Assembly: GCA_044223005.1 (NCBI GenBank)
Contig: JBGAML010000011.1
Span: forward strand, 73,169-137,168
DNA length: 64,000 nt
Origin: Candidatus Eiseniibacteriota bacterium
GTDB taxonomy: Bacteria > Eisenbacteria > RBG-16-71-46
Direction of reading: 5' to 3'
Part shown: positions 20,775 to 45,812 of the stretch, in pieces
How positions within the stretch are numbered: the stretch's first letter is position 1
Layout: each line of letters opens with the position of its first letter
Translations under genes and position numbers: made by a program
Notes under the pieces: generated by a model
Seen by the model: only the letters and a program-made list of their open reading frames with translations
Databases searched by the model: none
What the model was told of the DNA's origin: nothing

Positions 20775-22787
20775 TCACCAGATCCGCGCGCGCAGCTCGC
20801 TCTTGCGGACCATCGGATCGCCGTCCTTGCAGCCGAAGGCCTTCGCGAACTCCTCGAGGTTGGAGAACGGTCCGTTCACGCGCCAGACCGACGGCGAGTG
20901 CGGATCGGTCTCGACCTGCGAACGCAGGTCCTCGGGGGTCTCGAGCGTGCGCCAGACGCGCGCCCATGCGAGGAAGAACCGCTGCTCGGGCGTGAAGCCG
21001 TCGCGCAGCACGGGCTTCTGGCCGGCCGTGGCCTTCTGGAACGCGGCGTACGCCACGGCGAGGCCGCCCAGGTCGGCGATGTTCTCGCCCAGCGTGACCT
21101 TGCCGTTCAGGTGCACGGAGTCGAGCACGGTGTACGCCGAGAACTGCGCGGCCACCTTGTCGGCGCGTTCCTTGTAGCGGCTCGCGTCCTCGGGCGTCCA
21201 CCAGTCGCGCAGGTTGCCGTCGGCGTCGAACTGCCGTCCGCGATCGTCGAAACCGTGCGTCATCTCGTGCCCGATCACGGCGCCGATCGCGCCGTAGTTC
21301 AGCGCGTCGTCCCACTTCGGGTCGAAGAAGGGCGGCTGCAGGATCCCGGCGGGGAAGTTGATGCTGTTGACCGACGACGAATAGAAGGCGTTCACCGTCG
21401 GCGCGCTCATGGACCACTCGCCGCGGTCGACCGGGCCGCCGATCCGCCCGATGTTGCGCGCGATCTGCCAGCGCACGGCGGCGGAGCGGTTCGCGAACCA
21501 CGACTCGCGCGAGATGCGCACGTTGGCGTAGTCGCGCCAGGTGTTCGGGTAGCCGATCTTCTCCTCGAACGCCTCGAGCTTGCCGCGCGCGGCGAGGCGG
21601 GTCGCGTCGCTCATCCAGTCGAGCGCGGCGATGCGATCGCCCAGCGACGATTCCAGGTTGCGCACCAGCGCGAGCGCGCGCTCGCGCGCCTGCGGCGGGA
21701 ACTGCTCCTTCACGTACGCGCGCCCGAGCAGGTCGCCCAGGTCGCCGTCGGTGGCGGCGATGCAGCGCTTCCAGCGCGGGAGCAGCTCGGTGGCGCCGGT
21801 CAGCCGCTTGCGCCACGCGAAGTCCTCGTCGACGAACGCCTGCGACAGCGTGGGCGAGGCCTCGCGCACGACGTTCCAGCGCAGGTAGGCCTTCCAGTCG
21901 TCGATCGGCGTGCCCGTCACGCGCGCCGCGAAGCCGCGGGCGAAGCCGGGCTGCATGACGTTGACCGAATCCGGCACGCGCATGCCGCGGCGGCCGAAGT
22001 AGGCGGCCCAGTCGAAGCCGGGCGTCCAGAGCTTCAGCGAATCGAGCGGCACGAAGTGGTAGACCGCGCGCGGATCGCGGCGCTGCTCGCGCGTCATCGA
22101 AGCCTCGGCGAGCGCGGTCTCCAACGCCATGATGCGCGCGGCCTCGCCGTCCGGATCTTTGCGGCCCAGGAGCTTCAGCACGCGCCCCACGTGCGCGACG
22201 TATTCCGTGCGCAGCGCGGCCGAGGCCGAGTCCGGCTTGAAGTAGTAGTCGCGCTCGGGCATGCCGAGGCCGCCCTGGCCGGTGACGGCGATCGTCAGCC
22301 GGCTGCGCTTGGCGTCCGGCGCGCCGCCGAACAGGAAGCCCGCCCGGATCCCGCCCGCGTGCAGCGAGCCGAACTCGCCGGCCAGGTCCGAGGCGTTCGC
22401 GATCGCGTCGATCGCGTCCAGGTCCGCCTGGAGCGGCGCGATCCCGGCGCGGTCCGCGGCCACGGAGTCCATGCACGCGGCGAAGTAGTCGCCGATGCGG
22501 CGCGTGTTGCTGTCGGCCTTCGCGCCCGCGGCCGCCGCGCGCTCGAGGATGCCGCGCAGCACCTGCTCGTTGCGGTCGGCGAGTTCGTCGAAGCCGCCGT
22601 AGCTGCCGTAACCGGCGGGCATCTTCGTGTTCGCGAGCCAGTGGCCCTCGGCGTACTGGTAGAAATCGCGGCACGGCGAACATGTCGTGTCCATGTCGGC
22701 GCGGTTCCAGTACGACGGCGTCGCGGCGAACGACGGCGCCACCGCCGCGAGCAGCAGGCAGGTGGTCCAGCGGAGGAAACGCGGCAT
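20775..22787 (-). CDS. M13 family (neprilysin/PepO-like) metallopeptidase, copy 2
   Basis: Signal peptide, PCRDFYQYA, VNAFY, HEMTHGFD, GENIAD, DPHSP, ends RARIW. Confidence 0.95.
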   Translation of the reverse strand: MPRFLRWTTCLLLAAVAPSFAATPSYWNRADMDTTCSPCRDFYQYAEGHWLANTKMPAGYGSYGGFDELADRNEQVLRGILERAAAAGAKADSNTRRIGDYFAACMDSVAADRAGIAPLQADLDAIDAIANASDLAGEFGSLHAGGIRAGFLFGGAPDAKRSRLTIAVTGQGGLGMPERDYYFKPDSASAALRTEYVAHVGRVLKLLGRKDPDGEAARIMALETALAEASMTREQRRDPRAVYHFVPLDSLKLWTPGFDWAAYFGRRGMRVPDSVNVMQPGFARGFAARVTGTPIDDWKAYLRWNVVREASPTLSQAFVDEDFAWRKRLTGATELLPRWKRCIAATDGDLGDLLGRAYVKEQFPPQARERALALVRNLESSLGDRIAALDWMSDATRLAARGKLEAFEEKIGYPNTWRDYANVRISRESWFANRSAAVRWQIARNIGRIGGPVDRGEWSMSAPTVNAFYSSSVNSINFPAGILQPPFFDPKWDDALNYGAIGAVIGHEMTHGFDDRGRQFDADGNLRDWWTPEDASRYKERADKVAAQFSAYTVLDSVHLNGKVTLGENIADLGGLAVAYAAFQKATAGQKPVLRDGFTPEQRFFLAWARVWRTLETPEDLRSQVETDPHSPSVWRVNGPFSNLEEFAKAFGCKDGDPMVRKSELRARIW

Positions 22788-22812
22788 CTCGGGGTCCTTC
22801 CGGAAGCCGGAC

Positions 22813-22831
22813 GGGGGGGGGGGGGGGGGGG
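22813..22831 (+). repeat. 19-nt G homopolymer (probable sequencing/assembly artefact)
   Basis: Lies exactly where the stop codon of the upstream M13 gene is expected. Confidence 0.8.
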
Positions 22832-24841
22832 CGGCCCGGCGGTGTTCACCATGGGATCGCCGTCCTTGCAGCCGAACGCCTTCGCGAACTCGTCCAGGTT
22901 CGACAGCGGCCCGTTGACGCGCCAGTGCGCGGGGGAGTGCGGGTCGGTGTTGACCTGCGTCCGCAGCGCTTCGGGCCGCTGCAGCCGGCGCCAGATCTGC
23001 GCGTACGAGAGGAAGAAGCGCTGCTCGGGCGTGAAGCCATCGATCTTCGGGCGCGGCTTGCCGTCGAGCGCCTTCTGCATCGCCGCGTACGCCACCGCGA
23101 GACCGCCCAGGTCGGCGATGTTCTCGCCCAGCGTGAGCCGGCCGTTCAGGTGCAGCGAGTCGAGCACGGTGTAGCCCGAGAACTGCTCGGCGACCTTGGA
23201 CGCGCGCTCCTTGTACCGCGTCGCGTCGTCGGCCGCCCACCAGTCGCGCAGGTTGCCGCGCGGATCGAACTGGCGGCCCTGGTCGTCGAACCCGTGCGTC
23301 ATCTCGTGCCCGATCACGGCGCCGATGCCGCCGTAGTTCGCGGCGTCGTCCCACGACGGATCGAAGAACGGCGGCTGCAGGATGCCGGCGGGGAAGTTGA
23401 TGCTGTTCAAGTTCGGGCTGTAGAACGCGTTCACCGTCGGCGGCGTCATCATCCATTCACCGCGCTCGGTGGGCTTGCCGATCTTGTTGAACTGGCGCGC
23501 GACCTCGAACTGGCGCACCGCCGCGCGGTTCGCGAAGAACGGCTGGCGCTGGACCTGGAGCGCCGTGTAGTCGCGCCACTTGTCCGGGTAGCCGATCTTG
23601 TTCGAGAACGCCTGCAGCTTGACCTTCGCCGCCTGCCGGGTCTCGGGGCTCATCCACTCCAGCGTCGTGAGCTTGTCGTCGAGCGCCGCCTCGAGGTTGT
23701 GCACGAGCTGCAGCGCGCGCTCCTTGGCCGCGGGCGAGAAGTGGAGCCGCACGTACTCGGCGCCGAGCAGGTCGCCGAGGCCCATGTCGGCCGCGCGCAG
23801 GCAGCGCTTCCAGCGGGGCTGCATCTCGGTCACGCCCGTCATCACGCGCTGGAACCGGAAGTCCTCGTCGACGAACGCGGCGTTGAGCGTCGGCGCGGCG
23901 TCCTCGACCACGCGCCAGCGCAGGTACGCCTGCCACGCCGGCAGCGGCGTCGCGGCGACGATCGAGTCGAGCCCGGTGAAAAACGTCACCTGCGCGACGT
24001 TGAGCGAGTCGAACTTCGGGCCGCCGCGCTTGGCGAGGTAGGTGCCCCAGTCGTAGGCCGGGGCCAGCTTCGCCAGCTCCGCGACGCTCATGAAGTGGTA
24101 GTTGGCGTTCGGGTCGCGGCGCTGGACGTTCGTGTACGACGTCTTCGCGAGCGCGGTCTCGATCCCGAGGATCTGGTCGGCGGCCGACTTCGCGTCCGCT
24201 TCGGCGACGCCGAGCAGCTGGAACGAGCGCACGATGTGGTCCACGTACGCCGCGCGCGTGGCGACCGCGGCCGAATCACGCTTCAGGTAGTACTCGCGGT
24301 CCGGCAGCCCGAGACCGCCCTGGCCGGCGCTGGCGATCATGCGGTCGCTGTTCTTCACGTCCGCCTGCGCGCCGAGCATGTAGAGAGCGCGCACGCCGTG
24401 CGCGTGCAGCCACGCGACCTGCTCGGCCAGTTCGCGCTTGTCCTTCATGGCGTCGATCGCCGAGAGCAGCGGCTGCAGCGGCTTCGTGCCCTCGCGCTCG
24501 GCCTCGGTCGAGTCCATGCAGCTGCCGTAGTAGGCCCCGAGCTTGAACGTGGGGCTGCCGGGCTTGGCGCTCTTGTCCGCGGCGGCCTTCTCGAGGATGT
24601 CGAAGAGCGCGGCCTGGTTGCGCTCGGCGAGTTCGCTGAAGCTGCCCCAGCCCGACTGCGTGCCGGGGATGGTGTGCGTGGCCTTCCAGCCGCCGCTGGC
24701 GTACTGGTCGAAGTCGCGGCAGGGGGCACACGTGGTGTCGAAGTTGGCCGGGTCGAATACGGCCTTGGCCGCAGGGGCGGCGACCGCCGAGCCGGCGAAC
24801 GCCAGCAGCGCGGCGGCGAGCATCAGGGGGCGAAAAGTCAT
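22813..24841 (-). CDS. M13 family metallopeptidase, copy 1 (3' end obscured by poly-G)
   Basis: Signal peptide MTFRPLMLAAALLAFAGSAVA, HEMTHGFD, GENIAD, DPHSP, FGCKDGDPMV. Confidence 0.92.
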
Positions 24842-25143
24842 CGGGTGAATCCCTCGATCCGAAGGAGAGGTCGACGACACGGCCGTGGGGAGGCCGACAG
24901 GGGACAGCCGGGCGCACGGTAGGGCAGCCGGGGACCGGCGCCGGGGGAAAGTGCACGAGCGTGCCGTCCCGGGCGCCGAATGCGCCACCGCCGCGCGGTG
25001 GCTCCGAGCCCTCCGGACGCAGTGGCCCGCAGCGGGGCATTGCCCGGCACGCCCGCGCCGCCTACCCTGATCGCTTCCCGCGCCGGCCCCCGCGGGGCCG
25101 CGCCGTGCCGGGGCCGCCCCAGGACTTCGGAGCGACTCCGCGT

Positions 25144-27933
25144 ATGCCGCGCCTCCATCCGCGCCTCGCGTTCGTGATCGTGCTCGCCGGGCTCGCCGTC
25201 GCCGTGCGCGCCGGCGGTTCCCCGCCGGCCTCGGGTGACCTCGTCGCCTGGCGCGCGGCCTTCTCGCGCGATTCGCTCGCCGTGACCGCCGCGTTCGACC
25301 GCGGGCAGCCCGATTCCGGCCTCGCGCTCGCCGCCACGTTCGGTGAGGCGTACGCGAAGGCGCCGTTCGCGGCGGTTCGCGCGCGCGGGCTCATGCTCCG
25401 GCCCGTCTCGCTGCTTCGGCTCGCGCGCGCCAAGGATGCGCTGCCGGGGATCCTGGAGGCCGAGCGCGTCGCCGAGGCGTCGGGCGACACCGCCGTGTGG
25501 ATGCTCGCGCTGCGATCCGAGGCGGTGGCGCGCAACTTCTTCGGCGATTTCGCCCGCGCCGCGAGGCTGGCGCAGCGATGGGACGCGCTGGCAAAGGCCT
25601 CGGGCAACGTCGAGTACCAGGGCTGGGCGGGCACGATGCGTGGCTGGTTCGCGTGGCACGCGGCCGATCTCGTCACCGCGCGCCGCGAGCTCGAGCACTC
25701 GCTCGCGCTGGTCGAGCAGGTGCCATGGTCGCTCAGCTACCCGTACACGCTCAACGTGCTCGCGAGCGTCATGAGCGCGCAGGGCGACTACACCGCGGCG
25801 CGGCCGCTCTACCAGCGCATCCTCGATCGCGGCCACCTGTGGAGCGACCCGCGCACGCGGCTCATGGCGCTCGAGAGCCTCGCGCGCGTCGACAGCCGGG
25901 TGGGCGATCCGACGAAGGCCCTCGCGAACTGGCGCGAGGCGATGGCGATCCGCGAAGCGCGCCAAGAGACCAGCGACTGGCTTGTCGATGCCGACAACGT
26001 GTGTTCGGAACTCATGGCCCTCGGCCGCAACGACGAGGCCGTCTCGCTCGCCGAGCGCGCGGTCGCCGCCGCCGAGCGCGAGAGCCTCGGGATGGAGATC
26101 AGCTGGCAGCGCGTGCAGCTCGGCAACGCCTGCCGCGCGCGCGGCCAGGAGGCGCGCGCCCGCGCACTCCTGCGGTCCGTACTCGCGACTCCGATCCCGG
26201 GAGACGAACAGCCGCGCGCCGAAGCCGCCGTGAGCCTGGTCGAGTCGCTCGCCGAGGGCGACAGTGTCGCCGCGGCGCTCGCGCTCGCCGAGGCCGAAGC
26301 CCCGAAGCCCGGTTCGGGGCTCGAGCAGGAGGTGATCGCGCGGCTCGCGATCGCGCGTGCCGATCTCCTGACGAGGCTCGGCCGGCCCGAGGAGGCGCTG
26401 GCCGCCGCCCGGCCCGTCGCGGAGGCGACCGAGGCGAGCGGCGATCTGGAGTGGGCCCTCGCCGCGTGGACGCAGGCCGTGCGCGCCGAACGGCGGCTCG
26501 CTCGCCCGGGGGACGTGGCGCGCGACCTCGAGCGGGCGACGGCGCTCTGGGAGCGGAGCCGCTCGCACGTCGCCGCGCCGGAGTTCCGCGAGGTGCGCGG
26601 CGAGCAGGCGCACGCGCTCATGCTCGAGGCGGTGGCCGAGGCGCTCGAACGCGCGCCCGGCGACGTCGCGTCGCCCTTCGCGATCGTGCAGCGGTTCAAG
26701 ACGCGCACGCTGCTCGAGCACGTGGCCGGACCGGCCGCGCTCGCGGGGCCGGCGCCGTCGTACCTCGACGCGCCCCTCGCGAGCCTCGCGACGTTCCAGT
26801 CGGCGACGCTCGCGCCGGACGAACTCTTCCTCGAATGCGCCTGCGGACCGGAGACGACGTTCGTGATCGCGGTGACGCGCGACACGTGCCGCGTGCTGGC
26901 GGCGCCGGGCGCGCGCTCACTCGAGCCCGCGCTGGCCGCGCTCGGCAGCCTGCACGCGCCGACGGAGTCGGCCGAGCGCACGGCGCGCGCGCTCGCGGGC
27001 GCGCGGCTGGGGAGCGCGCTGCTCGGCGACGTGGCCGACCTGCTCGCGAGCCATCCGGCGGTCGTCGTCGCCGCCGACGACGCCCTGCACTCTTCGCCGG
27101 TCGGGGAGTGGACGCTGCCCGGTGTCGCGGCGTCGCTCGGCGCGACTCACCGGATCGCGTACACGCCTTCGGCGTCGATGCTCGCGCTGCTGCGCGCCCG
27201 CCAGGCGCTCGCGCCGGGGCGCATGCTGGCGATCCTCGGCGCCACGCGCACCGGTGGCGCGACGCTGCGCGGCGCCCGACGCGAGGTGGGAGCGCTCGCC
27301 GGCCGCTATCGCGACATCGAGGAGTGGGACGCCGGCCGCGCCGGTGCTTCACCGCTCACCGTGGCGCGGCTCGCCGGCTACGCCGGGCTGCACTTCGCCG
27401 GGCACGCGATCGTGGATCCGCAGGTGCCGTGGCGCTCGGGGCTGCTGCTCGGCCGCGCCCACGACGGCAGCGATTCGCTGCTGACCGCGGACCGTATCGC
27501 GGCCGCGCGAATCCCCGCGAGGCTCGTCGTGCTCTCGAGTTGCGAGTCCGGAGCCGGCCGCTCGCGTGCCGGGGAAGGCGTGACCGGTCTCGCCACGGCG
27601 TTCCTCGCCGCCGGCGGATCGGCGGTGGTCGCGTCGCGCTGGCCCGTGGAGGACCGCGCCGCCGCGCAGCTCATGGATCGCTTCTACGCCCACCTCGCGA
27701 AGGGCGAGAGCGCGGATCGCGCCCTCGCGGGCGCGCAGGCGGAACTGCGTGCGGACCCCGCGACGGCCGACCCGTTCTACTGGTCGGGCTTCGTGGTCGT
27801 GGGCGACGGCCGCACGACTTGGCCCCTGGCGGAGCGTCCGGTGACGTCCCGGCGGCTCGCGGGCGGCGCCGCCGCGCTGATCGCCGTGGCCGCCGTCGCG
27901 CTCGCGAGCCGGCGCCGGCGCACCGGCCGCTGA
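25144..27933 (+). CDS. TPR plus CHAT (caspase-like) protease with signal peptide and C-terminal TM anchor
   Basis: TPR-like repeats; LRGARREV, LHFAGH, VVLSSCESG, GEGVTGLATAFLAAG, SRWPVED, PFYWSGFVVVG. Confidence 0.9.
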   Translation: MPRLHPRLAFVIVLAGLAVAVRAGGSPPASGDLVAWRAAFSRDSLAVTAAFDRGQPDSGLALAATFGEAYAKAPFAAVRARGLMLRPVSLLRLARAKDALPGILEAERVAEASGDTAVWMLALRSEAVARNFFGDFARAARLAQRWDALAKASGNVEYQGWAGTMRGWFAWHAADLVTARRELEHSLALVEQVPWSLSYPYTLNVLASVMSAQGDYTAARPLYQRILDRGHLWSDPRTRLMALESLARVDSRVGDPTKALANWREAMAIREARQETSDWLVDADNVCSELMALGRNDEAVSLAERAVAAAERESLGMEISWQRVQLGNACRARGQEARARALLRSVLATPIPGDEQPRAEAAVSLVESLAEGDSVAAALALAEAEAPKPGSGLEQEVIARLAIARADLLTRLGRPEEALAAARPVAEATEASGDLEWALAAWTQAVRAERRLARPGDVARDLERATALWERSRSHVAAPEFREVRGEQAHALMLEAVAEALERAPGDVASPFAIVQRFKTRTLLEHVAGPAALAGPAPSYLDAPLASLATFQSATLAPDELFLECACGPETTFVIAVTRDTCRVLAAPGARSLEPALAALGSLHAPTESAERTARALAGARLGSALLGDVADLLASHPAVVVAADDALHSSPVGEWTLPGVAASLGATHRIAYTPSASMLALLRARQALAPGRMLAILGATRTGGATLRGARREVGALAGRYRDIEEWDAGRAGASPLTVARLAGYAGLHFAGHAIVDPQVPWRSGLLLGRAHDGSDSLLTADRIAAARIPARLVVLSSCESGAGRSRAGEGVTGLATAFLAAGGSAVVASRWPVEDRAAAQLMDRFYAHLAKGESADRALAGAQAELRADPATADPFYWSGFVVVGDGRTTWPLAERPVTSRRLAGGAAALIAVAAVALASRRRRTGR

Positions 27934-28023
27934 CCTCCCGCGCCGCTCGGACGTGGATCGCGGGACGCAACCCCGCTAACCTGTCGCGGTTGCGGCGCGC
28001 ACCCCGAGGCGCCGGCGGGTCCT

Positions 28024-28054
28024 TGTGACGAATCGCAGCGCATCCGGGTCTCAC
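28024..28054 (+). promoter_or_regulatory. putative autoregulated ECF promoter
   Basis: TGTGA-N18-GGTCTCAC, 3 nt before ATG 28058; same motif at 29390. Confidence 0.65.
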
Positions 28055-28057
28055 CTC

Positions 28058-28651
28058 ATGACGGACGCACGTCCCGAAGCACTCGACGACGAGGCGCTGT
28101 TCGATCTCGCCGTGTCGCAGCCCGGCACGGCACGCGGGCGCGCGGCCGCGTCGTGCCTGCTCGGACGTCACCAGCAACGTGTCTACCTGTGGTGCCGGCG
28201 GTACGTGAGGGACCACGACCAGGCGCTCGACCTGGCGCAGGAGGTGCTCTTGAGCGCGTATCGCGCGATGGCGGGCTTCGAAGGCCGGTCGCGCTTCTCG
28301 TCGTGGCTGTTCGCCATCGCGCGCAACAAGTGCCTCAACGCCGTGCGCGCGAAGCGACTGTTCGTGGACGACGACGCCGATCCGGACACGATCGACTCCG
28401 ACGCGCCCCTGCCCGAGGCCACGCTCGAACTGGAACAGGACCACGAGCGGCTGCGCGGCGTGCTCGCGCGCCATCTCGACCCGCCCGAGCGCGAGGCGCT
28501 CTGGCTCTCGGTCGCGGAGCGGCTGTCCGTGGACGAGATCACCCGCGTCATGGGACTCGGCAACGCGACCGGCGCCCGCGGCCTGCTGCAGAAGGCCCGT
28601 CGCCGCCTGCGCGCCGCGCTCGAGCGCGGCCACCTGGAGGAGCCGTCGTGA
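28058..28651 (+). CDS. ECF sigma factor
   Basis: ALDLAQEVLL, FEGRSRFSSWLFAIARNKCLN, region 4 LSVDEITRVMG...ARRRLR. Confidence 0.92.
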   Translation: MTDARPEALDDEALFDLAVSQPGTARGRAAASCLLGRHQQRVYLWCRRYVRDHDQALDLAQEVLLSAYRAMAGFEGRSRFSSWLFAIARNKCLNAVRAKRLFVDDDADPDTIDSDAPLPEATLELEQDHERLRGVLARHLDPPEREALWLSVAERLSVDEITRVMGLGNATGARGLLQKARRRLRAALERGHLEEPS

Positions 28652-29346
28652 GCACGGATCGCTGCTTCCCGCCCGAGGACGCCGCCCGCGTCGCCGCGCT
28701 GGCCGCGGATTCGCCCGAGCGCCGGCACGCCGCCGACTGCCCGCGCTGCGCTGCGCTGCTTTCCGCCTTCGCCGCCTACGAGGCCGCGGATCCGGCCGGC
28801 GTGCCGGCGCGCGATCTCGCGGACGCGAACGCGCGCCTTTCGGCGGCGCTCGCGCAGGAGATCGGCGACCTCGAGGAGGAGCCGGCCCCCGCGCCGCGCG
28901 CGATCCGCGCGGCGCCGCGTGAGCTCCCGTGGTTCCTGCGGCCCGCGCTGCGGCCGGCGTTCGCGCTGGCGGCGCTGCTGCTCGCGGTGGGCACGTTCGC
29001 GTGGCTGCGGCCCGGCCATGACGGCGGCGCGCCCGAACTGCGCGGCGGCGGCAGGGCCGCACCCGAGATCGCGCAGGCCGACTTCGCGGCGGATTCGCTC
29101 CGGCTCGCGTGGCACGGCATGCCGGGCGCCGACGCCTACGAGGTGCGCTTCTATTCGAGCGAGCTCGCCGAGTTGGGAAATGCCGGTCCGACGGCCGATT
29201 CGAGCCTCGCGCTCGGCGCGAGCGTGCTCGGCTTCAGTGTCCCGCCGGGCGAGACCGTGCTCGTGCGCGTGATCGCGCTCGGCCAGGGCGCGCCGCTCGG
29301 CACGTCGCCGACGCGGGCGATCGTTCGGGGCGCTGCGGCGCACTGA
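28648..29346 (+). CDS. zinc-binding (ZAS-like) transmembrane anti-sigma factor
   Basis: GTGA coupling; HAADCPRC (HxxxCxxC), one TM, LRGG motif, FN3/Ig-like external domain. Confidence 0.8.
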   Translation: MSTDRCFPPEDAARVAALAADSPERRHAADCPRCAALLSAFAAYEAADPAGVPARDLADANARLSAALAQEIGDLEEEPAPAPRAIRAAPRELPWFLRPALRPAFALAALLLAVGTFAWLRPGHDGGAPELRGGGRAAPEIAQADFAADSLRLAWHGMPGADAYEVRFYSSELAELGNAGPTADSSLALGASVLGFSVPPGETVLVRVIALGQGAPLGTSPTRAIVRGAAAH

Positions 29347-29389
29347 CGCGCCCCGCCGGCACCTCCGGCCGGCGCAATCTTCATCGCGG

Positions 29390-29420
29390 TGTGATTTCCC
29401 GCGGGGCTTCGCGGTCCCAC
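29390..29420 (+). promoter_or_regulatory. putative ECF target promoter
   Basis: TGTGA-N18-GGTCCCAC, 46 nt before ATG 29467. Confidence 0.65.
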
Positions 29421-29466
29421 TCGCCGGACCCGTCCCGGCCGACCGCTCTTCACCGGAGGAAGCCCC

Positions 29467-32400
29467 ATGTCCCCACGTGCCCGCCTGCTGCTGCTCGTTC
29501 TCGGAGCCGTCCTCGCGCTCCCGCTGGCCCGGCCCGCGTTCGCCAACTGGGCGAGCGACGGGACGCCCGTCGCGAACAACTCCGGCACCCAGTCCATCGG
29601 GTACCTGTACGACACGCCCGGCAGCGCGGTGGCGCCGGACGGCCGCGGCGGCGTGTTCGTCGCGTACACGACCAACAGCGGTGACTCGATCCGGATCAAC
29701 CACATCGACGGCATCACCGGGAACCGGCTCTGGGGGACCAACGGCCTCAAGGTGAACGAGGGCGGCAACGGCGCCTCCGTGCCGCAGGTGCTTCCCGACA
29801 GCCTGGGTGGCGTCTGGATCGCGTGGCTCGACACCGGCGGTGGCACCACCACCGTGCGCGCGCAGCACTACGACCGCAACGGCGTCGAGATGGGCACCGC
29901 CGGCGGGTTCGCCGCGATGGGCGAGATCGGGACCGCGGTGCCGGGAGGGCCCGTGATCGCGCGTGGCGTGGGCAGCACGCACCTGCTCCTCGCGGCGCGT
30001 TACACCGCTACGGCGGGCGTCCGGGTCGTCGACATCCGGATCCAGGGAAACGGCTTCCTGCCCTTCATCGGCATGCAGGCGCAGGTGAGTACCGACCTCG
30101 TGCCCGCGAGCGCTTCACCGCTGCAGCTCTTCTCCGACGGTGGGGGTGGCGGCTGGATCGTGTGGCCCGCACTCAACTCGCCGCTCGCGGGAATCGGCAC
30201 CTTCGGCCGCATCTCGGCGAACCGGTTCGCGTCCAACGGTGCCGTGCAGTGGGGCGCGAACGGCGTGGTCGTCCAGTCATCCGCCAGCGTGGCCCTCGAC
30301 GACATGGATGCGCTCTCGACCGGGACGGACCTCTACGTCGTCTGGCGCCACACGACGACGACCAGCGACGGCATCCATGCCCAGCGCCTGGATGGCTCGG
30401 GCGTGCTGCAATGGGGCGCGAATACCACCGGCGCGACGGTCGCGGCGTTCCCCGCGACGGCGTGGAGCAACTACCCGGGCGTACTCGCGCAACCGCGGCT
30501 CGCGAGCGACGCGGTGACCGGACTGTGGGTCGCGTGGATCGACGCCCGCGACTACAACCGGCCGGCGCCGAACGGCATCCACCATTTCCAGGACGCGTAC
30601 GTGCAGCGGTTGAGTGGGACGGGAGCGCGCCAGCTCGCGACGGCCGGGGCCCCGATCGACACGATGCCGGGCTCGCTCGAGCAGGTGCGGGTCGAAGCGA
30701 CCGATTCGGGCGCACTGCTGGTGGCCTACCGCTCCTGGCTCTTCGACAACGGGGACATCTATCTGGCGCGCGTCGCGTTCGCGGGCACGATCGTGTGGAG
30801 CGACTGGCTCAACAAGTCCGGCAGTCTCCTGCTCAACGACAACATCCAGACGTCGCCCGTGCTCGCCGCCGACGGCTTCGGTGGCGTCTTCGTGGGCTGG
30901 GACGACAACCGGATTGCGGGAAACCCGGACGTCTACGTCTCGCACCGGACGAGCTCCGGCGGTCTCGGCGGCCCCACGCTCACCGTGACGGCGCCGAACG
31001 GAGGCGAGACGCTGGTTCCCTTCTCGACGTCGAACCTCACGTGGACCAGCACTCAGCTGGGAGACGTCTCCAGCCTCTCCAACATCCGGCTCGAATACGC
31101 GGTCGTGGGCCAGCCGCGCGTCACGATCACCTCCTCCACGGCGAACGACGGCACGTTCGCGTGGGCGGTGCCCGACCTGCGCTCGAACGCGGTGAAGGTG
31201 TACGCCTCCGACGTGACGACCGGGACGATCGCCGACAGCAGCAACGCCGTGTTCTCGGTGTGCAGCTCGCTCGCGCTCACCGACAGCACGACCCTGATGC
31301 TCGGCGCGAACGACGTCCGGCTCGCCGATCTCGACTTCGACGGCGCGCTGGATCTCGTGATTCCGAACGCGATCGGGATCTCGATCTGTCGCGGCACGGG
31401 CACGGGCTCGTTCCGGCCTGCCGAGTCGGTCCTGATCGGCAGCGGCGGCCGCAACGTCGCGGTCGAAGACTTCGACGGGGACGGGCTCCTCGATCTCGCC
31501 GTCACGATCAGCAACTTCGTGAGCGTCCTGCGGGGCCACGGAACGAACGGCCACTGGGACAGCACCTTCACCGCTGCGGTCAACTACCCCGCGGGCCCCG
31601 GCGCACGCGACCTCGTCGCGGCCGACTTCGACGAGGATGGGATCCTCGATCTCGCCGTGCTGGACGGGCTCGCGAACACGGTGTCGATCCTGCGCGGCAA
31701 CGGCGACAATGGCACCGGCGACGCCACGTTCGCCGCACCCGTCGCCTACGCGGTGGGCGTGAGCCCTTCGCGGCTCGTGGCCGGGGACTTCAATGAGGAC
31801 GGCATCCTCGATCTCGCCAACACGAACGGGAATGCGACGACGCCGAGCGTCACCGTGCTGCTCGGCAACGGCAGTGGCGGGAAGGGTGACGGCACGTTCG
31901 CCCCGGCCGTCGCCTACCCGGTCGGCTCGACGCCGATCGGGATCACGTCCGCCGACTTCGATGGAAACGGCATCGCCGATCTGGCGGTGTCGTGCAACTC
32001 GTCCGTGGGTGTGGGCGTCCTGTTCGGCAAAGGCACCGGCGACGTCGGCGACGGCACGTTCGGCGGTGTGAGCAACATCTCGATCGGCGGCAACGCGATC
32101 GACGTGAAGGCCTCGGACGTCGACGCCGACGGCAAGGTCGACCTGGTCGTGATCTCCAACACGCTCCACACGGCGGTGATCCTCCACGGCAACGGCAGCG
32201 GCACGTTCACCACCGGAACGCCGTTCGTGGCGGGCCGCGCCCCGCTCATGCTCGCGATGGGCGACGTGAACGGCGACGGCGAGGTGGATGCCCTCTGCGC
32301 GAACTCGAGCAACACCAATGTGACCGTGCTGCGGGGTGGGTGCCCGAACGTCGGGCCGTCGCAGCTCGTTCTCTCGACTCCGAACGGTGGCGAGTTCCTG

Positions 32401-34614
32401 AGCGTGGGGAACGCCACGACCGTGTTGCACACCCGCTCGGACAACATCCCGCTCGTGGACGTCGAGGTGTCGCGCGACGACGGCGCGCACTGGCGGCCGC
32501 TCGTCCGCAACGCCATGGGCAAGCTGTTCACGTGGGACGTGGCGCCGCCCGTGACGGGTGCCGCACGCCTGCGCGTCGTCGATGCGCAGCGTCGCGGCGT
32601 CTCCGATGCCACGAACGCATCGTTCGTGGTCGCGACGCACGGGATCCTCGTCACGCATCCCTCCGGTGGCACGGTCACGGCGTTCGCGCCGGACACGATT
32701 CGCTGGATCACGCCCGGAACGCCCACCGTGTCGCTGTCGTACCGCATCGGCAACGGTCCCGCGCGGCCGATCGCGAGCAACGTCCCGGGCACGGGCGCGT
32801 TCGCGTGGATGCCGCCGGACACGCAGGTCACCAACCTGCGCGTGATCGTCGCCAGCACGAGTCCGGCCGCGGCCGACACGAGCGCCGAGGACGTCGCGAT
32901 CTGCGAGCGCTTCGACCCGGCGATCCTGCTTCCCTCGGGTGGCTTCCCGTACGACGTGGCGGCCGCCGACTTCGACGGCGACGGCATCGAGGATCTCGTC
33001 GCCGCGACGAACCCCGGCGTGGACGTCCACCTCGGGCTGGGCAGCGGCGGCATCGGCAACGGAACGTTCGCGCCACCCGTGGCCTACCCCACGGAGCAGG
33101 CCGCCACCCGGCTCGCGCTGGGCGACCTCAACGAAGATGGGCGGCCGGACGTGGTGACCAACTCGGCGAGCGGGTTCCAGGTGCTGCTCGATACGAGCGG
33201 GGGTGTGCTCGGCACGGCCACGGGCTTCGGGAACGCGGACACGACTCTCGACGTCGCGATCGGCGACGCCGATCTCGACGGCATCGAGGACGTGTTCGCC
33301 TCGGAACCGGGCACGTCCCGGATCGAGACGCGTTTCGGCACGGGCCAGAACGGCGTCGGTGACGGCGGCTTCGGCGGCCAGGCCGTGCTCTCCTGCCCGA
33401 TCGCTCCGGGGCGCATCTGCGTCGTCGATGTGGACCAGGACGGCGATCTCGACGTCATCGCCACGCAGAAGTCGACGGGGGCCGTCATGGTCGCGCTCGG
33501 CGGCTTCACGGGAAGCAATCACCACTACGTTCCGGGCGCCGGCGGGACGACTGTCTACGACCTGACGCACCTCCTCGGGGCGCCCACGATCGCGGACTTC
33601 GACGGCGACGGCGTGCTCGACATCGCCGTTTCGACGACGAACATGCTGCGGATCCTGCCGGGACTCGCCGTCAACGGCCACCCGATGGGCATCTTCGGCC
33701 TTCCCACCGACGGCCTGCTGCCCAACGTCCTGGGGGACGAGCTCGCCGTCGCGGACCTCAACGGAGATGCGCTCCCGGACCTCGTCGCGAACACCGCCGA
33801 CGGTGGCAGGGGCCTGCGGGGCATGCTCAACCGTGGCGGGTTCGTGTTCGAGTACGTCGGCGAAGCCTTCACCGGACTGCCCACGGTGCGAGGCCTGCTC
33901 CTTTCGGACTTCAATCGGGACGGCAGCCCCGACGTCGTGCTCGGCGGGGCGGCCACGCCCGGGCTCGCGCTGCTGGCCGGCGACCCGTGCACGAGCTTCT
34001 CGCGCTTCGTCTCGTTCACGCCGCCCGCGCCGGGCGCAGTGACTGGCGCGAGCCCCGCGGCGGCCGCGACCACGTGGGCCGTCGACGAAACGCACGCTCT
34101 CACGTGGACCAAGAGCCCGAACGTGTTCCTCGTGGACCTGCAGGCGTCGCGGAACGGCGGCGCCACGTGGGAGACGATCGCGCGCGACGTGCCCGGCACG
34201 TCGTTCGCGTGGACCGTGACGCGCCCGGCCACGTCGTCGCTCACGTTCCGTGCACGCGACGCGGCGAGCACGCTCACCAGCGCTCCGACCGTCACGCCGG
34301 TCGTCGTGACCGATCCGGTGGCGGGCGTCGGCGACGCGCTGCCGGTGTCGGTCGCGTTCTCGGCCGCGTGGCCGAACCCCTCGCACGGGGACGTCCGCTT
34401 CGAGCTCGGGCTGCCGCGAGCACAGGCCGTGGACGTCACGGTGTACGACGTCGCGGGCCGCGAAGTCGGCGTGCTCGCGCGCGGCGTCCTGCCCGCGGGC
34501 CGTCATGCGCTGTGCTGGGACGCGGGGCACGGGAGCGCGCCCGCGGGCGTCTACCTCGTGCGCGCTCGCACCGAAGGTCTGGACGCGGTGCGCCGGATCG
34601 TGCGCGTTCGCTGA
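29467..34614 (+). CDS. large secreted FG-GAP/VCBS repeat protein with T9SS/FlgD-like C-terminal domain
   Basis: Signal peptide; many DFDGDG.LDL repeats in two blocks; PNGGE Ig-like domains; WPNPS...VYDVAGREV...AGVYLVR tail. Confidence 0.92.
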   Translation: MSPRARLLLLVLGAVLALPLARPAFANWASDGTPVANNSGTQSIGYLYDTPGSAVAPDGRGGVFVAYTTNSGDSIRINHIDGITGNRLWGTNGLKVNEGGNGASVPQVLPDSLGGVWIAWLDTGGGTTTVRAQHYDRNGVEMGTAGGFAAMGEIGTAVPGGPVIARGVGSTHLLLAARYTATAGVRVVDIRIQGNGFLPFIGMQAQVSTDLVPASASPLQLFSDGGGGGWIVWPALNSPLAGIGTFGRISANRFASNGAVQWGANGVVVQSSASVALDDMDALSTGTDLYVVWRHTTTTSDGIHAQRLDGSGVLQWGANTTGATVAAFPATAWSNYPGVLAQPRLASDAVTGLWVAWIDARDYNRPAPNGIHHFQDAYVQRLSGTGARQLATAGAPIDTMPGSLEQVRVEATDSGALLVAYRSWLFDNGDIYLARVAFAGTIVWSDWLNKSGSLLLNDNIQTSPVLAADGFGGVFVGWDDNRIAGNPDVYVSHRTSSGGLGGPTLTVTAPNGGETLVPFSTSNLTWTSTQLGDVSSLSNIRLEYAVVGQPRVTITSSTANDGTFAWAVPDLRSNAVKVYASDVTTGTIADSSNAVFSVCSSLALTDSTTLMLGANDVRLADLDFDGALDLVIPNAIGISICRGTGTGSFRPAESVLIGSGGRNVAVEDFDGDGLLDLAVTISNFVSVLRGHGTNGHWDSTFTAAVNYPAGPGARDLVAADFDEDGILDLAVLDGLANTVSILRGNGDNGTGDATFAAPVAYAVGVSPSRLVAGDFNEDGILDLANTNGNATTPSVTVLLGNGSGGKGDGTFAPAVAYPVGSTPIGITSADFDGNGIADLAVSCNSSVGVGVLFGKGTGDVGDGTFGGVSNISIGGNAIDVKASDVDADGKVDLVVISNTLHTAVILHGNGSGTFTTGTPFVAGRAPLMLAMGDVNGDGEVDALCANSSNTNVTVLRGGCPNVGPSQLVLSTPNGGEFLSVGNATTVLHTRSDNIPLVDVEVSRDDGAHWRPLVRNAMGKLFTWDVAPPVTGAARLRVVDAQRRGVSDATNASFVVATHGILVTHPSGGTVTAFAPDTIRWITPGTPTVSLSYRIGNGPARPIASNVPGTGAFAWMPPDTQVTNLRVIVASTSPAAADTSAEDVAICERFDPAILLPSGGFPYDVAAADFDGDGIEDLVAATNPGVDVHLGLGSGGIGNGTFAPPVAYPTEQAATRLALGDLNEDGRPDVVTNSASGFQVLLDTSGGVLGTATGFGNADTTLDVAIGDADLDGIEDVFASEPGTSRIETRFGTGQNGVGDGGFGGQAVLSCPIAPGRICVVDVDQDGDLDVIATQKSTGAVMVALGGFTGSNHHYVPGAGGTTVYDLTHLLGAPTIADFDGDGVLDIAVSTTNMLRILPGLAVNGHPMGIFGLPTDGLLPNVLGDELAVADLNGDALPDLVANTADGGRGLRGMLNRGGFVFEYVGEAFTGLPTVRGLLLSDFNRDGSPDVVLGGAATPGLALLAGDPCTSFSRFVSFTPPAPGAVTGASPAAAATTWAVDETHALTWTKSPNVFLVDLQASRNGGATWETIARDVPGTSFAWTVTRPATSSLTFRARDAASTLTSAPTVTPVVVTDPVAGVGDALPVSVAFSAAWPNPSHGDVRFELGLPRAQAVDVTVYDVAGREVGVLARGVLPAGRHALCWDAGHGSAPAGVYLVRARTEGLDAVRRIVRVR

Positions 34615-43181: not shown

Positions 43182-43201
<20 letters not shown>
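42704..43201 (+). CDS. His-rich beta-sandwich-like hypothetical protein
   Basis: GAAGGGG RBS; ends WRYDITV...TLDPMIII. Confidence 0.65.

Positions 43202-45812
<2,611 letters not shown>

Follow-up and report, generated by a model that had tools for sequence, protein, structure and literature searches.

Only a few types of protease are known to switch off membrane-bound anti-sigma factors. In the classical pathways of regulated intramembrane proteolysis, represented by RseA/DegS/RseP, RsiV and RsgI, a single-pass anti-sigma factor receives an extracytoplasmic site-1 cut and is then processed by an M50 site-2 protease. The sole caspase-like case that has been studied, DdvA, has stalled over the signal and the cut site. 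Here we describe a locus within a 64,000-nucleotide stretch of contig JBGAML010000011.1 of a Candidatus Eiseniibacteriota bacterium (the whole stretch analyzed, hereafter the window), where genes for a protein with TPR repeats and a CHAT protease domain (TPR-CHAT), a sigma factor of the extracytoplasmic function (ECF) type, a single-pass anti-sigma factor and a giant FG-GAP protein follow one another on the same strand. It is nearly certain that the first three work together. On comparative grounds, the best explanation for them would be a three-part trans-envelope signalling module, that is, a split and trans-acting variant of the DdvA/DdvS system, to which a locus-specific output gene has been added.

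DdvA, from Myxococcus xanthus, is a single-pass anti-sigma factor that joins a cytoplasmic CHCC zinc domain to a large periplasmic TPR-CHAT region (PMC11506125). In the model put forward for it, cutting of the flexible juxtamembrane linker by the CHAT domain is set off by a signal and takes place in trans within a dimer, after which RseP takes over; truncated DdvA is lost in an RseP-dependent manner, cleavage by the CHAT domain was not demonstrated, and the His-Cys dyad is in a resting state (PMC11506125). The search for relatives in that study was aimed at fused forms only and turned these up in Myxococcota and one Comamonas (PMC11506125). A second known system, the type III-E craspase, comprises Cas7-11, the TPR-CHAT protein Csx29, Csx30 and RpoE (PMC10028731). 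A third is the ECF54 group of Actinobacteria, in which an ECF sigma gene is conserved beside a TPR-CHAT gene (Huang et al. 2015, quoted in the supplement of PMC7826278). A full-text literature search, which did not cover the later ECF groups, found no published account in which an exported CHAT protease, encoded on its own, is the partner of an anti-sigma factor.

The four co-directional genes are all present at the coordinates collected in Table 1, together with every element named in the initial annotation of the locus: the HFAGH and LSSCES motifs, the N-terminal hydrophobic segment and the C-terminal helix with RRRR of the CHAT protein, and the H-x3-C-x2-C and ELRGG motifs of the anti-sigma factor. 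While these observations were confirmed, the interpretation given with them, a protease-triggered, CRISPR-independent relative of the craspase with the FG-GAP protein as its target, is partly supported, as detailed below.

The tie between CHAT, sigma and anti-sigma is visible already within the host genome, an assembly of 4.52 Mb in 35 contigs with 99% completeness as estimated from marker genes. It holds 12 CHAT genes and 29 matches to sigma region 2, and in eight of the 12 cases a sigma gene is found no more than 5 kb away from CHAT, far more often than by chance; random placement gave a mean of 0.76, and 0 of 20000 trials reached eight. CHAT>sigma>anti-sigma triads number four and occur in the window and at L008, L009 and L010, and these account for all four full-length anti-sigma factors of the family in the genome. 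The four corresponding sigma factors form a clade with support values of 100/98.

The arrangement recurs in other genomes. A profile of the anti-sigma factor matched 86 of 206 genomes of the same phylum (a tally that includes G000 and the unpublished G073, the latter not used), and the neighbourhoods were scanned with hidden Markov models (HMMs) built from the proteins of this genome for 60 of the 150 listed matches, taken roughly in listing order with preference for those away from contig ends. Among the 61 Eisenbacteria matches tallied, the order is CHAT>sigma>anti-sigma in 38 and sigma>anti-sigma>CHAT in nine (with one tandem ambiguity), a convergent CHAT gene is present in one, 12 have none and one is cut by a contig end, so that CHAT adjoins the anti-sigma gene in 48/61; the sigma gene lies directly upstream in 60/61. 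In a second phylum (Acidobacteriota, going by locus L103), matches at E <= 1e-08 were obtained in 36 of 251 sampled genomes, a number that includes the unpublished G232 and G360, neither of which was used. Twenty loci yielded 11 same-strand CHAT genes, most of them placed after the pair (sigma>anti-sigma>CHAT), together with one convergent CHAT gene; five loci have none and three are cut by contig ends. A linkage that persists although gene order differs between the phyla speaks strongly for a functional tie, and the linkage in relatives (48/61 and 12/20) bears out the initial annotation on this point. A FastTree phylogeny of 70 CHAT domains places all 46 linked Eisenbacteria domains, nine of the 12 second-phylum domains included and one further paralogue of the host genome (L003) in a single clade (support 1.0), although the support inside the Eisenbacteria part is only 0.53. 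The CHAT domains that are linked to kinases form a separate clade, also with support 1.0.

On other contigs of the same genome, the loci L004:2456-8032 and L006:2318-8059 each encode an ECF sigma factor, a Ser/Thr kinase with a DUF4384 ectodomain and an exported TPR-CHAT protein; the sigma factors and CHAT proteins of both fall in separate clades. Both kinases carry the sequence L-R-G-[IV]-G-G near the C-terminal end of the ectodomain, which recalls the L-R-G of the anti-sigma factors. Look-alike clusters were also seen in Krumholzibacteriota, Acidobacteriota and Gemmatimonadota and are leads only.

The TPR-CHAT protein matches the Pfam families CHAT (E 2e-46, residues 619-888, nt 26998-27807) and TPR_12 (7.6e-17). 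It opens with a segment resembling a signal peptide (residues 1-26, MPRLHPRLAFVIVLAGLAVAVRAGG), continues with a TPR region at about residues 100-560, and has a putative catalytic dyad formed by H754 and C800. Near the C-terminus, a hydrophobic helix (residues 905-921, nt 27856-27906) is followed by RRRRTGR. According to the positive-inside rule, a basic stretch after a transmembrane helix marks the cytoplasmic side, so the bulk of the protein should be periplasmic, with the CHAT domain, which ends at about residue 888, close to the membrane face. Signal-peptide-like starts, identified with a crude criterion that asks for a start codon, a basic residue and a hydrophobic 11-mer, were found in 38 of 50 related CHAT open reading frames (ORFs), several of the 12 misses being ORFs clipped at region ends, and a C-terminal hydrophobic helix 31-50 residues past the CHAT domain was found in 21 of the 50. 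The claim of the initial annotation that the CHAT domain is extracytoplasmic thus agrees with the predicted export signals of the family. The catalytic Cys and the His aligned with H862 of DdvA are kept in 57 of 57 aligned CHAT sequences and a further, upstream His in 56 of them. Judging from these features, the CHAT protein is probably both extracytoplasmic and active.

The sigma factor matches Sigma70_r2 (6.7e-18) and TIGR02937 (86.4 bits, cut-off 42.9). The anti-sigma gene begins with a GTG that overlaps the sigma stop codon (GTGA), and its product (28648-29346) has no match in Pfam or NCBIfam. Its C6 and H27-x3-C31-x2-C34 reproduce the CHCC pattern of zinc-binding anti-sigma (ZAS) domains, and 72-75% of 65 relatives retain these residues. 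An AlphaFold model made with an alignment of 63 relatives, with a mean predicted local distance difference test (pLDDT) score of 83.7, divides the protein into a cytoplasmic ZAS helical domain (residues 1-72), a transmembrane segment (99-119, nt 28942-29004), a linker (120-140) and an ectodomain (141-226, nt 29068-29325). The helices cover residues 9-72, with pLDDT 86-98 over residues 11-70, and the N-terminal domain is predicted to be a CHCC zinc (ZAS) helical domain. The ectodomain is a beta-sandwich with pLDDT 92-98, and every listed match in a Foldseek search of the model against solved structures is a fibronectin type III (FN3) domain, the best with E 1.8e-05. Between the two, the linker is unstructured, with pLDDT around 50 and a minimum at residues 129-131.

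The most telling feature of the anti-sigma family lies in this linker. Across the 63 aligned sequences only two residues are invariant, W155, which we take to be the canonical FN3 tryptophan, and R132, the arginine of ELRGG (codon 29041-29043), which is therefore the sole invariant residue outside the FN3 core. R132 is kept in 221/221 sequences, consisting of the 63, 139/139 representatives of 50%-identity clusters and 19/19 sequences from the second phylum, where W155 is also kept in 19/19. The set of 139 derives from the 150 best cluster representatives obtained when 1.84 billion proteins were searched in full with HMMER, restricted to lengths of 200-270 residues and leaving out giant FN3-repeat proteins and two matches already among the 63. 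Within it, the residue before R132 is L, M or V in 133 cases and the residue after it is G in 109, whereas the zinc ligands are kept in just 110-113 and are hence less conserved than the arginine. R132 lies 5-20 residues (median 10) beyond the predicted end of the transmembrane segment, and W155 follows it at a distance of 21-31 residues; the sequences to either side of R132 have insertions and deletions. In the model, the arginine falls within the disordered segment of lowest pLDDT. An invariant residue in a disordered linker of variable length close to the membrane looks like a protease site or a docking motif. The guess made in the initial annotation of a cut near ELRGG gains real weight from these alignments and the model, because R132 is invariant and sits in an unstructured stretch.

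At E <= 1e-30 the family as a whole comprises 868 cluster representatives (50% identity), a figure that takes in some unrelated giant FN3-repeat proteins, and it extends over at least two phyla. One relative, in genome G095 (L070:4196-7648, minus strand), continues in the same reading frame into a Kelch beta-propeller and a FlgD_ig-type tail, giving a protein of 1150 residues in which the arginine is kept. Two comparisons between the partners gave no signal: the distance from transmembrane segment to arginine does not differ between anti-sigma factors whose CHAT partner has a C-terminal anchor and those whose partner has none (median 12 vs 10), and no co-variation was seen between an L-x-G-A/V-x-x-E stretch of CHAT and the L-R-G of the anti-sigma factor, compared as a possible shared motif.

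Structure databases point to DdvA as the nearest described relative. Searches of the PDB with the full CHAT protein or its profile were swamped by TPR matches, but a profile of the CHAT domain was informative and gave DdvA as the best match (8rot_B, 991 residues, E 7.3e-11), followed by separase (1.2e-07) and Csx29 (4.7e-04); in the alignment with DdvA, for which solved structures exist (PDB 8rot/8rw5), H754 corresponds to H862 and C800 to C907. The likeness extends to the system as a whole. In both cases an ECF sigma gene adjoins that of a single-pass anti-sigma factor whose N-terminal part is a CHCC zinc domain, a TPR-CHAT region, periplasmic in DdvA and predicted to be so in the window, carries a His-Cys dyad, and a flexible juxtamembrane linker is the proposed target of CHAT ahead of RseP. 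The promoter layouts are also similar, GTAA-n16-CGT for DdvS (PMC6061681) and GTGA-n17-CGT for the family of the window. The systems differ in that TPR-CHAT is part of the DdvA protein, while in the window it has a gene to itself, with a predicted signal peptide and, in this copy, a membrane anchor, and would thus act in trans. In addition, the anti-sigma ectodomain of the window is a small FN3 domain on a linker with the invariant arginine, the DdvS regulon consists of CBASS and type III-B CRISPR defence genes whereas the neighbours in the window are peptidases, Tex and the FG-GAP protein, and the module occurs in Eisenbacteria and Acidobacteriota as opposed to the Myxococcota and one Comamonas described for the fused forms.

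In the craspase, which the initial annotation used as its comparator, a sigma factor is released from an inhibitor when a TPR-CHAT protease cuts, and the same is proposed for the window; Csx29 is a more distant relative than DdvA, and the idea of a periplasmic TPR-CHAT that acts on a ZAS anti-sigma factor is already present in DdvA/DdvS. Moreover, the craspase is cytoplasmic, RNA-guided and CRISPR-linked, whereas the protease of the window has export signals. No cas or csx genes were found among the 20 ORFs scanned around the locus, the rest of the genome not having been searched for cas, and PADLOC made no defence-system assignment for the locus, giving only weak BovA and TPR matches to the CHAT protein. 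ECF54, as far as described in the source quoted above, has no anti-sigma factor, has a subtilase and CarboxypepD_reg as neighbours, and uses the promoter GTATCAG / CTCC; the cluster in the window has an anti-sigma factor and no subtilase, and its host is not an actinobacterium. Another locus of the same genome (L007:3835-10356), with the order sigma > TPR-CHAT > S8 subtilase > DUF4349, looks more ECF54-like than the window. Finally, the module resembles the classical pathways in its single-pass anti-sigma factor and in the presence of an M50/RseP-type protease gene in the genome, and it differs in that the site-1 cut would fall to a caspase-fold cysteine protease dedicated to this step and encoded alongside its substrate, and not to a serine protease, a signal peptidase or an autoproteolytic domain.

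Table 1. Genes and predicted promoters of the cluster, in window coordinates.
Feature	Position	Strand	Supporting evidence
Exported TPR-CHAT protease, 929 aa	25144..27933	+	Pfam CHAT + TPR_12
ECF-type promoter TGTGAC-N18-GTCTCA	28024..28053	+	precedes sigma gene
ECF sigma, 197 aa	28058..28651	+	Sigma70_r2, TIGR02937
Single-pass anti-sigma, 232 aa	28648..29346	+	zinc ligands, TM, FN3 model
Second promoter copy TGTGAT-N18-GTCCCA	29390..29419	+	precedes FG-GAP gene
Secreted FG-GAP protein, 1715 aa	29467..34614	+	FG-GAP_3, TIGR04183

The predicted promoters suggest how the module may be wired. The longest sigma ORF begins at a GTG at 28025, with the ATG at 28058 as an alternative; since the GTG lies inside the -35 element, the ATG is probably the true start. 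The promoter ends 4 nt ahead of this ATG, and the sigma mRNA is therefore predicted to be leaderless or nearly so. An exact TGTGA occurs at the matching place in 44 of 66 related sigma upstream regions, with several more one base off, and in 4.4% of random 180-nt segments from the same loci. In many relatives (L042-L101 regions), the stop codon TGA of the CHAT gene is part of the -35 element TGTGA. As the promoter lies between CHAT and sigma, it does not drive CHAT in loci of the order CHAT>sigma>anti-sigma, a placement that would suit a standing sensor combined with a self-amplifying sigma factor.

In the window, the second promoter copy has identical spacing and precedes the FG-GAP ATG by 48 nt, a stretch that includes a GGAGG ribosome-binding site. 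Genome-wide, the motif has 10 matches at N17-18, whereas the remaining spacings between 12 and 25 give 0-2 matches apiece. Five of the 10 precede plausible targets, namely the window sigma gene, the FG-GAP gene, a secreted protein after the L009 triad, a secreted protein with a tail typical of the type IX secretion system (T9SS) at C9:75329 (+) and a sigma-like gene at C15:7941 (+); the last two are candidate regulon members of one of the four paralogous sigma factors. The FG-GAP protein itself has a signal peptide, FG-GAP/VCBS beta-propeller repeats (FG-GAP_3, 1.1e-53) and a tail of the FlgD_ig/Por_Secre_tail type that matches the T9SS sorting domain TIGR04183 with 25.1 bits (cut-off 23). The genome also encodes a homologue of the T9SS translocon protein SprA (SprA_N 1.9e-25, in a 2124-residue frame at C15:136029), which fits a diderm cell with this secretion system. 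With a type A sorting domain and SprA in the same genome, the giant protein has the sequence features of a T9SS cargo.

The initial annotation regarded the FG-GAP protein as the target of the pathway. The shared promoter motif agrees with this for the window, where the giant protein is a predicted direct target of the sigma factor, but the protein is not a conserved member of the module. A second promoter within 500 nt after the anti-sigma gene was found in only 3 of 60 relatives (controls 0-1), and a cargo promoter as a family-wide feature was rejected on this count. A same-strand, supported ORF starts within 700 nt downstream of the anti-sigma gene in 36 of 61 cases, six of these ORFs being CHAT genes. 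Pfam searches with 25 of the other 30, together with the L070 fusion, showed that the downstream genes vary; they include FG-GAP, NHL, papain, M28 and DUF6345 but also cytochrome c, FTHFS and a transposase.

Contigs of one metatranscriptome (X20) contain five 151-nt records identical to the locus or with one mismatch, four on the CHAT gene and one spanning the sigma/anti-sigma junction; those on the FG-GAP gene are short partial pieces. This is weak RNA evidence, as carry-over of DNA is possible and such contigs cannot show transcription starts, and none of it was counted as evidence of expression.

The mechanism that we infer, including its cleavage step, cut site, RseP step, signal and the dependence of the promoters on the sigma factor, would run as follows. 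The TPR-CHAT protein would be exported and, in the case of the window copy, tethered to the inner membrane by its C-terminal helix, which would hold the catalytic domain at most about 15 residues from the membrane surface. The zinc-binding helical domain of the anti-sigma factor would hold the ECF sigma in the cytoplasm while presenting the FN3 domain in the periplasm on its flexible linker. CHAT would be activated by a signal in the periplasm, which is probably a protein or peptide sensed through the TPR region, the FN3 domain or both. Once active, CHAT would make the site-1 cut in the linker at or next to R132, in the context hydrophobic-R-G about 10 residues from the membrane. The remaining short stub would become a substrate for an RseP-type site-2 protease, freeing the sigma factor. 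The latter would then transcribe its own sigma/anti-sigma operon from the near-leaderless promoter and, from the second promoter copy, the giant FG-GAP surface or secreted protein. Metacaspases and gingipain R, both caspase-fold proteases, cut after arginine. Separase likewise cuts after arginine and is kept inactive by its pseudosubstrate securin, and craspases cut after Met or Leu (PMC11506125). R132 fits as a cut site on two counts: after cleavage there, about 10 residues would remain as a stub, and a preference for arginine is known from several caspase-fold proteases. Based on the linkage, the predicted topology and the arginine, we give slightly better than even chances to the exported CHAT protein being the site-1 protease that cuts the anti-sigma linker at R132, with an M50 protease following.

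A number of points weigh against this assignment. Both the binding of CHAT to the anti-sigma factor and the cleavage are predictions, the promoter motif was derived from sequence, and the gene calls were home-made from ORFs and third-position GC. The anti-sigma factors for which no CHAT gene was present in the fetched flanks (12/61 in Eisenbacteria and 5/20 in the second phylum) still keep the arginine, which could thus serve another protease or another role. In two of the nine sigma>anti-sigma>CHAT cases the CHAT protein belongs to the kinase clade and may not be the partner, and three paralogous CHAT proteins of the same genome have no C-terminal anchor. For DdvA itself, cleavage by CHAT is still a hypothesis, and mutants of the dyad have no phenotype absent the signal (PMC11506125).

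Three other readings of the locus were weighed. The module could be real and the CHAT protein not its site-1 protease: CHAT would instead act on exported cargo, for instance by maturing or checking proteins with T9SS tails in the manner of the caspase-fold PorU, the sigma pair would sense or regulate this activity, and another protease would cut at R132. The genome offers candidates for such cargo, with 139 FlgD_ig/T9SS-type C-terminal tails, which predict a very large T9SS-type secretome, in addition to the SprA homologue. Tail-bearing giant proteins adjoin eight of the 12 CHAT genes (read from Pfam tables), and for 21 of the 61 anti-sigma matches an ORF with such a tail, on the same strand, ends no more than 7 kb downstream, where about 10% would be a rough expectation given 139 tails in 4.52 Mb; the L010 CHAT protein also has a weak Peptidase_C25 match (1.2e-06). 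However, CHAT is linked far more tightly to sigma and anti-sigma (48/61) than to tail-bearing proteins (21/61), the downstream genes are heterogeneous down to cytochrome c, FTHFS and a transposase, and it would be left unexplained why the invariant linker residue suits the arginine preference of separase, metacaspases and gingipain R. We therefore consider an action on cargo unlikely.

It is a shade less likely still that CHAT and the sigma pair are merely co-regulated neighbours, with the anti-sigma factor being inactivated by DegS/Prc-type proteases, for one of which the arginine would be the site, or via its zinc site. Such an arrangement would agree with the 17 of 81 loci that keep the arginine without a nearby CHAT gene and with the ability of ZAS domains to respond to oxidants (PMC11506125). 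It is difficult to reconcile with a linkage that holds in two phyla despite the change of gene order and involves a dedicated CHAT clade, or with the fact that about 20% of the anti-sigma factors have lost zinc ligands while none has lost the arginine; and because the sigma promoter is located downstream of CHAT in most loci, plain co-transcription does not account for the adjacency. Least probable of the three is a reversed or non-proteolytic relationship in which the linker and FN3 domain form a securin-like pseudosubstrate, inhibitor or docking site, with signalling by binding and release or control of the protease by the anti-sigma factor and no cut at R132, since, for all that securin provides a precedent, TPR and FN3 are protein-binding modules and the DdvA dyad is resting and silent on mutation, the full dyad in 57/57 sequences argues for catalysis, and regulated intramembrane proteolysis of the RseA/RseP kind requires just such a membrane-proximal site, from which about 10 residues would remain as a stub.

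As for its surroundings, the window has a G+C content of about 72%. The four-gene cluster is flanked upstream by minus-strand M13 peptidase genes and downstream by a convergent minus-strand Tex gene. Of the two tandem M13 genes (22295-24988 and 20775-23456), the upstream one has no stop codon past its peptidase domain and reads on via a poly-proline stretch, for about 180 residues rich in Arg, until it enters the start of its neighbour, which may reflect an assembly frameshift or a real overlap. Further along the window (43182-45812, minus strand), an 876-residue Ser/Thr kinase with C-terminal TPR repeats is encoded, unrelated to the module. The closest named relative of the genome is a Candidatus Eisenbacteria metagenome-assembled genome, and near-identical DNA is present in metagenomes from sludge, wastewater and bioreactors (nine coded studies, one of which is possibly the source sample).

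What is new here is the split, trans-acting form; the fused DdvA/DdvS system was already known and is itself half-understood. The split family provides separate, small and easily expressed parts, one invariant arginine as the predicted cut site and a predicted promoter for a reporter. The caspase-like gating of a sigma factor across a membrane thereby becomes testable by simple co-expression, turning the DdvA hypothesis into an experiment with a defined residue. More generally, and tentatively, since we rate it somewhat short of an even chance, bacterial envelope signalling may have a general input layer made up of periplasmic, caspase-like CHAT proteases, in which a dedicated, trans-acting clan-CD protease would start regulated proteolysis of an anti-sigma factor by a cut after an invariant juxtamembrane arginine. 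On this reading, one genome would wire 12 such proteases to different transducers, four of them to FN3 anti-sigma factors and two to Ser/Thr kinases. No caspase-type site-1 pathway would have been described before it, and its defined cleavage motif is one that DdvA, the only studied relative, lacks. The split family also suggests a role for the many unexplained exported CHAT proteins of environmental bacteria.

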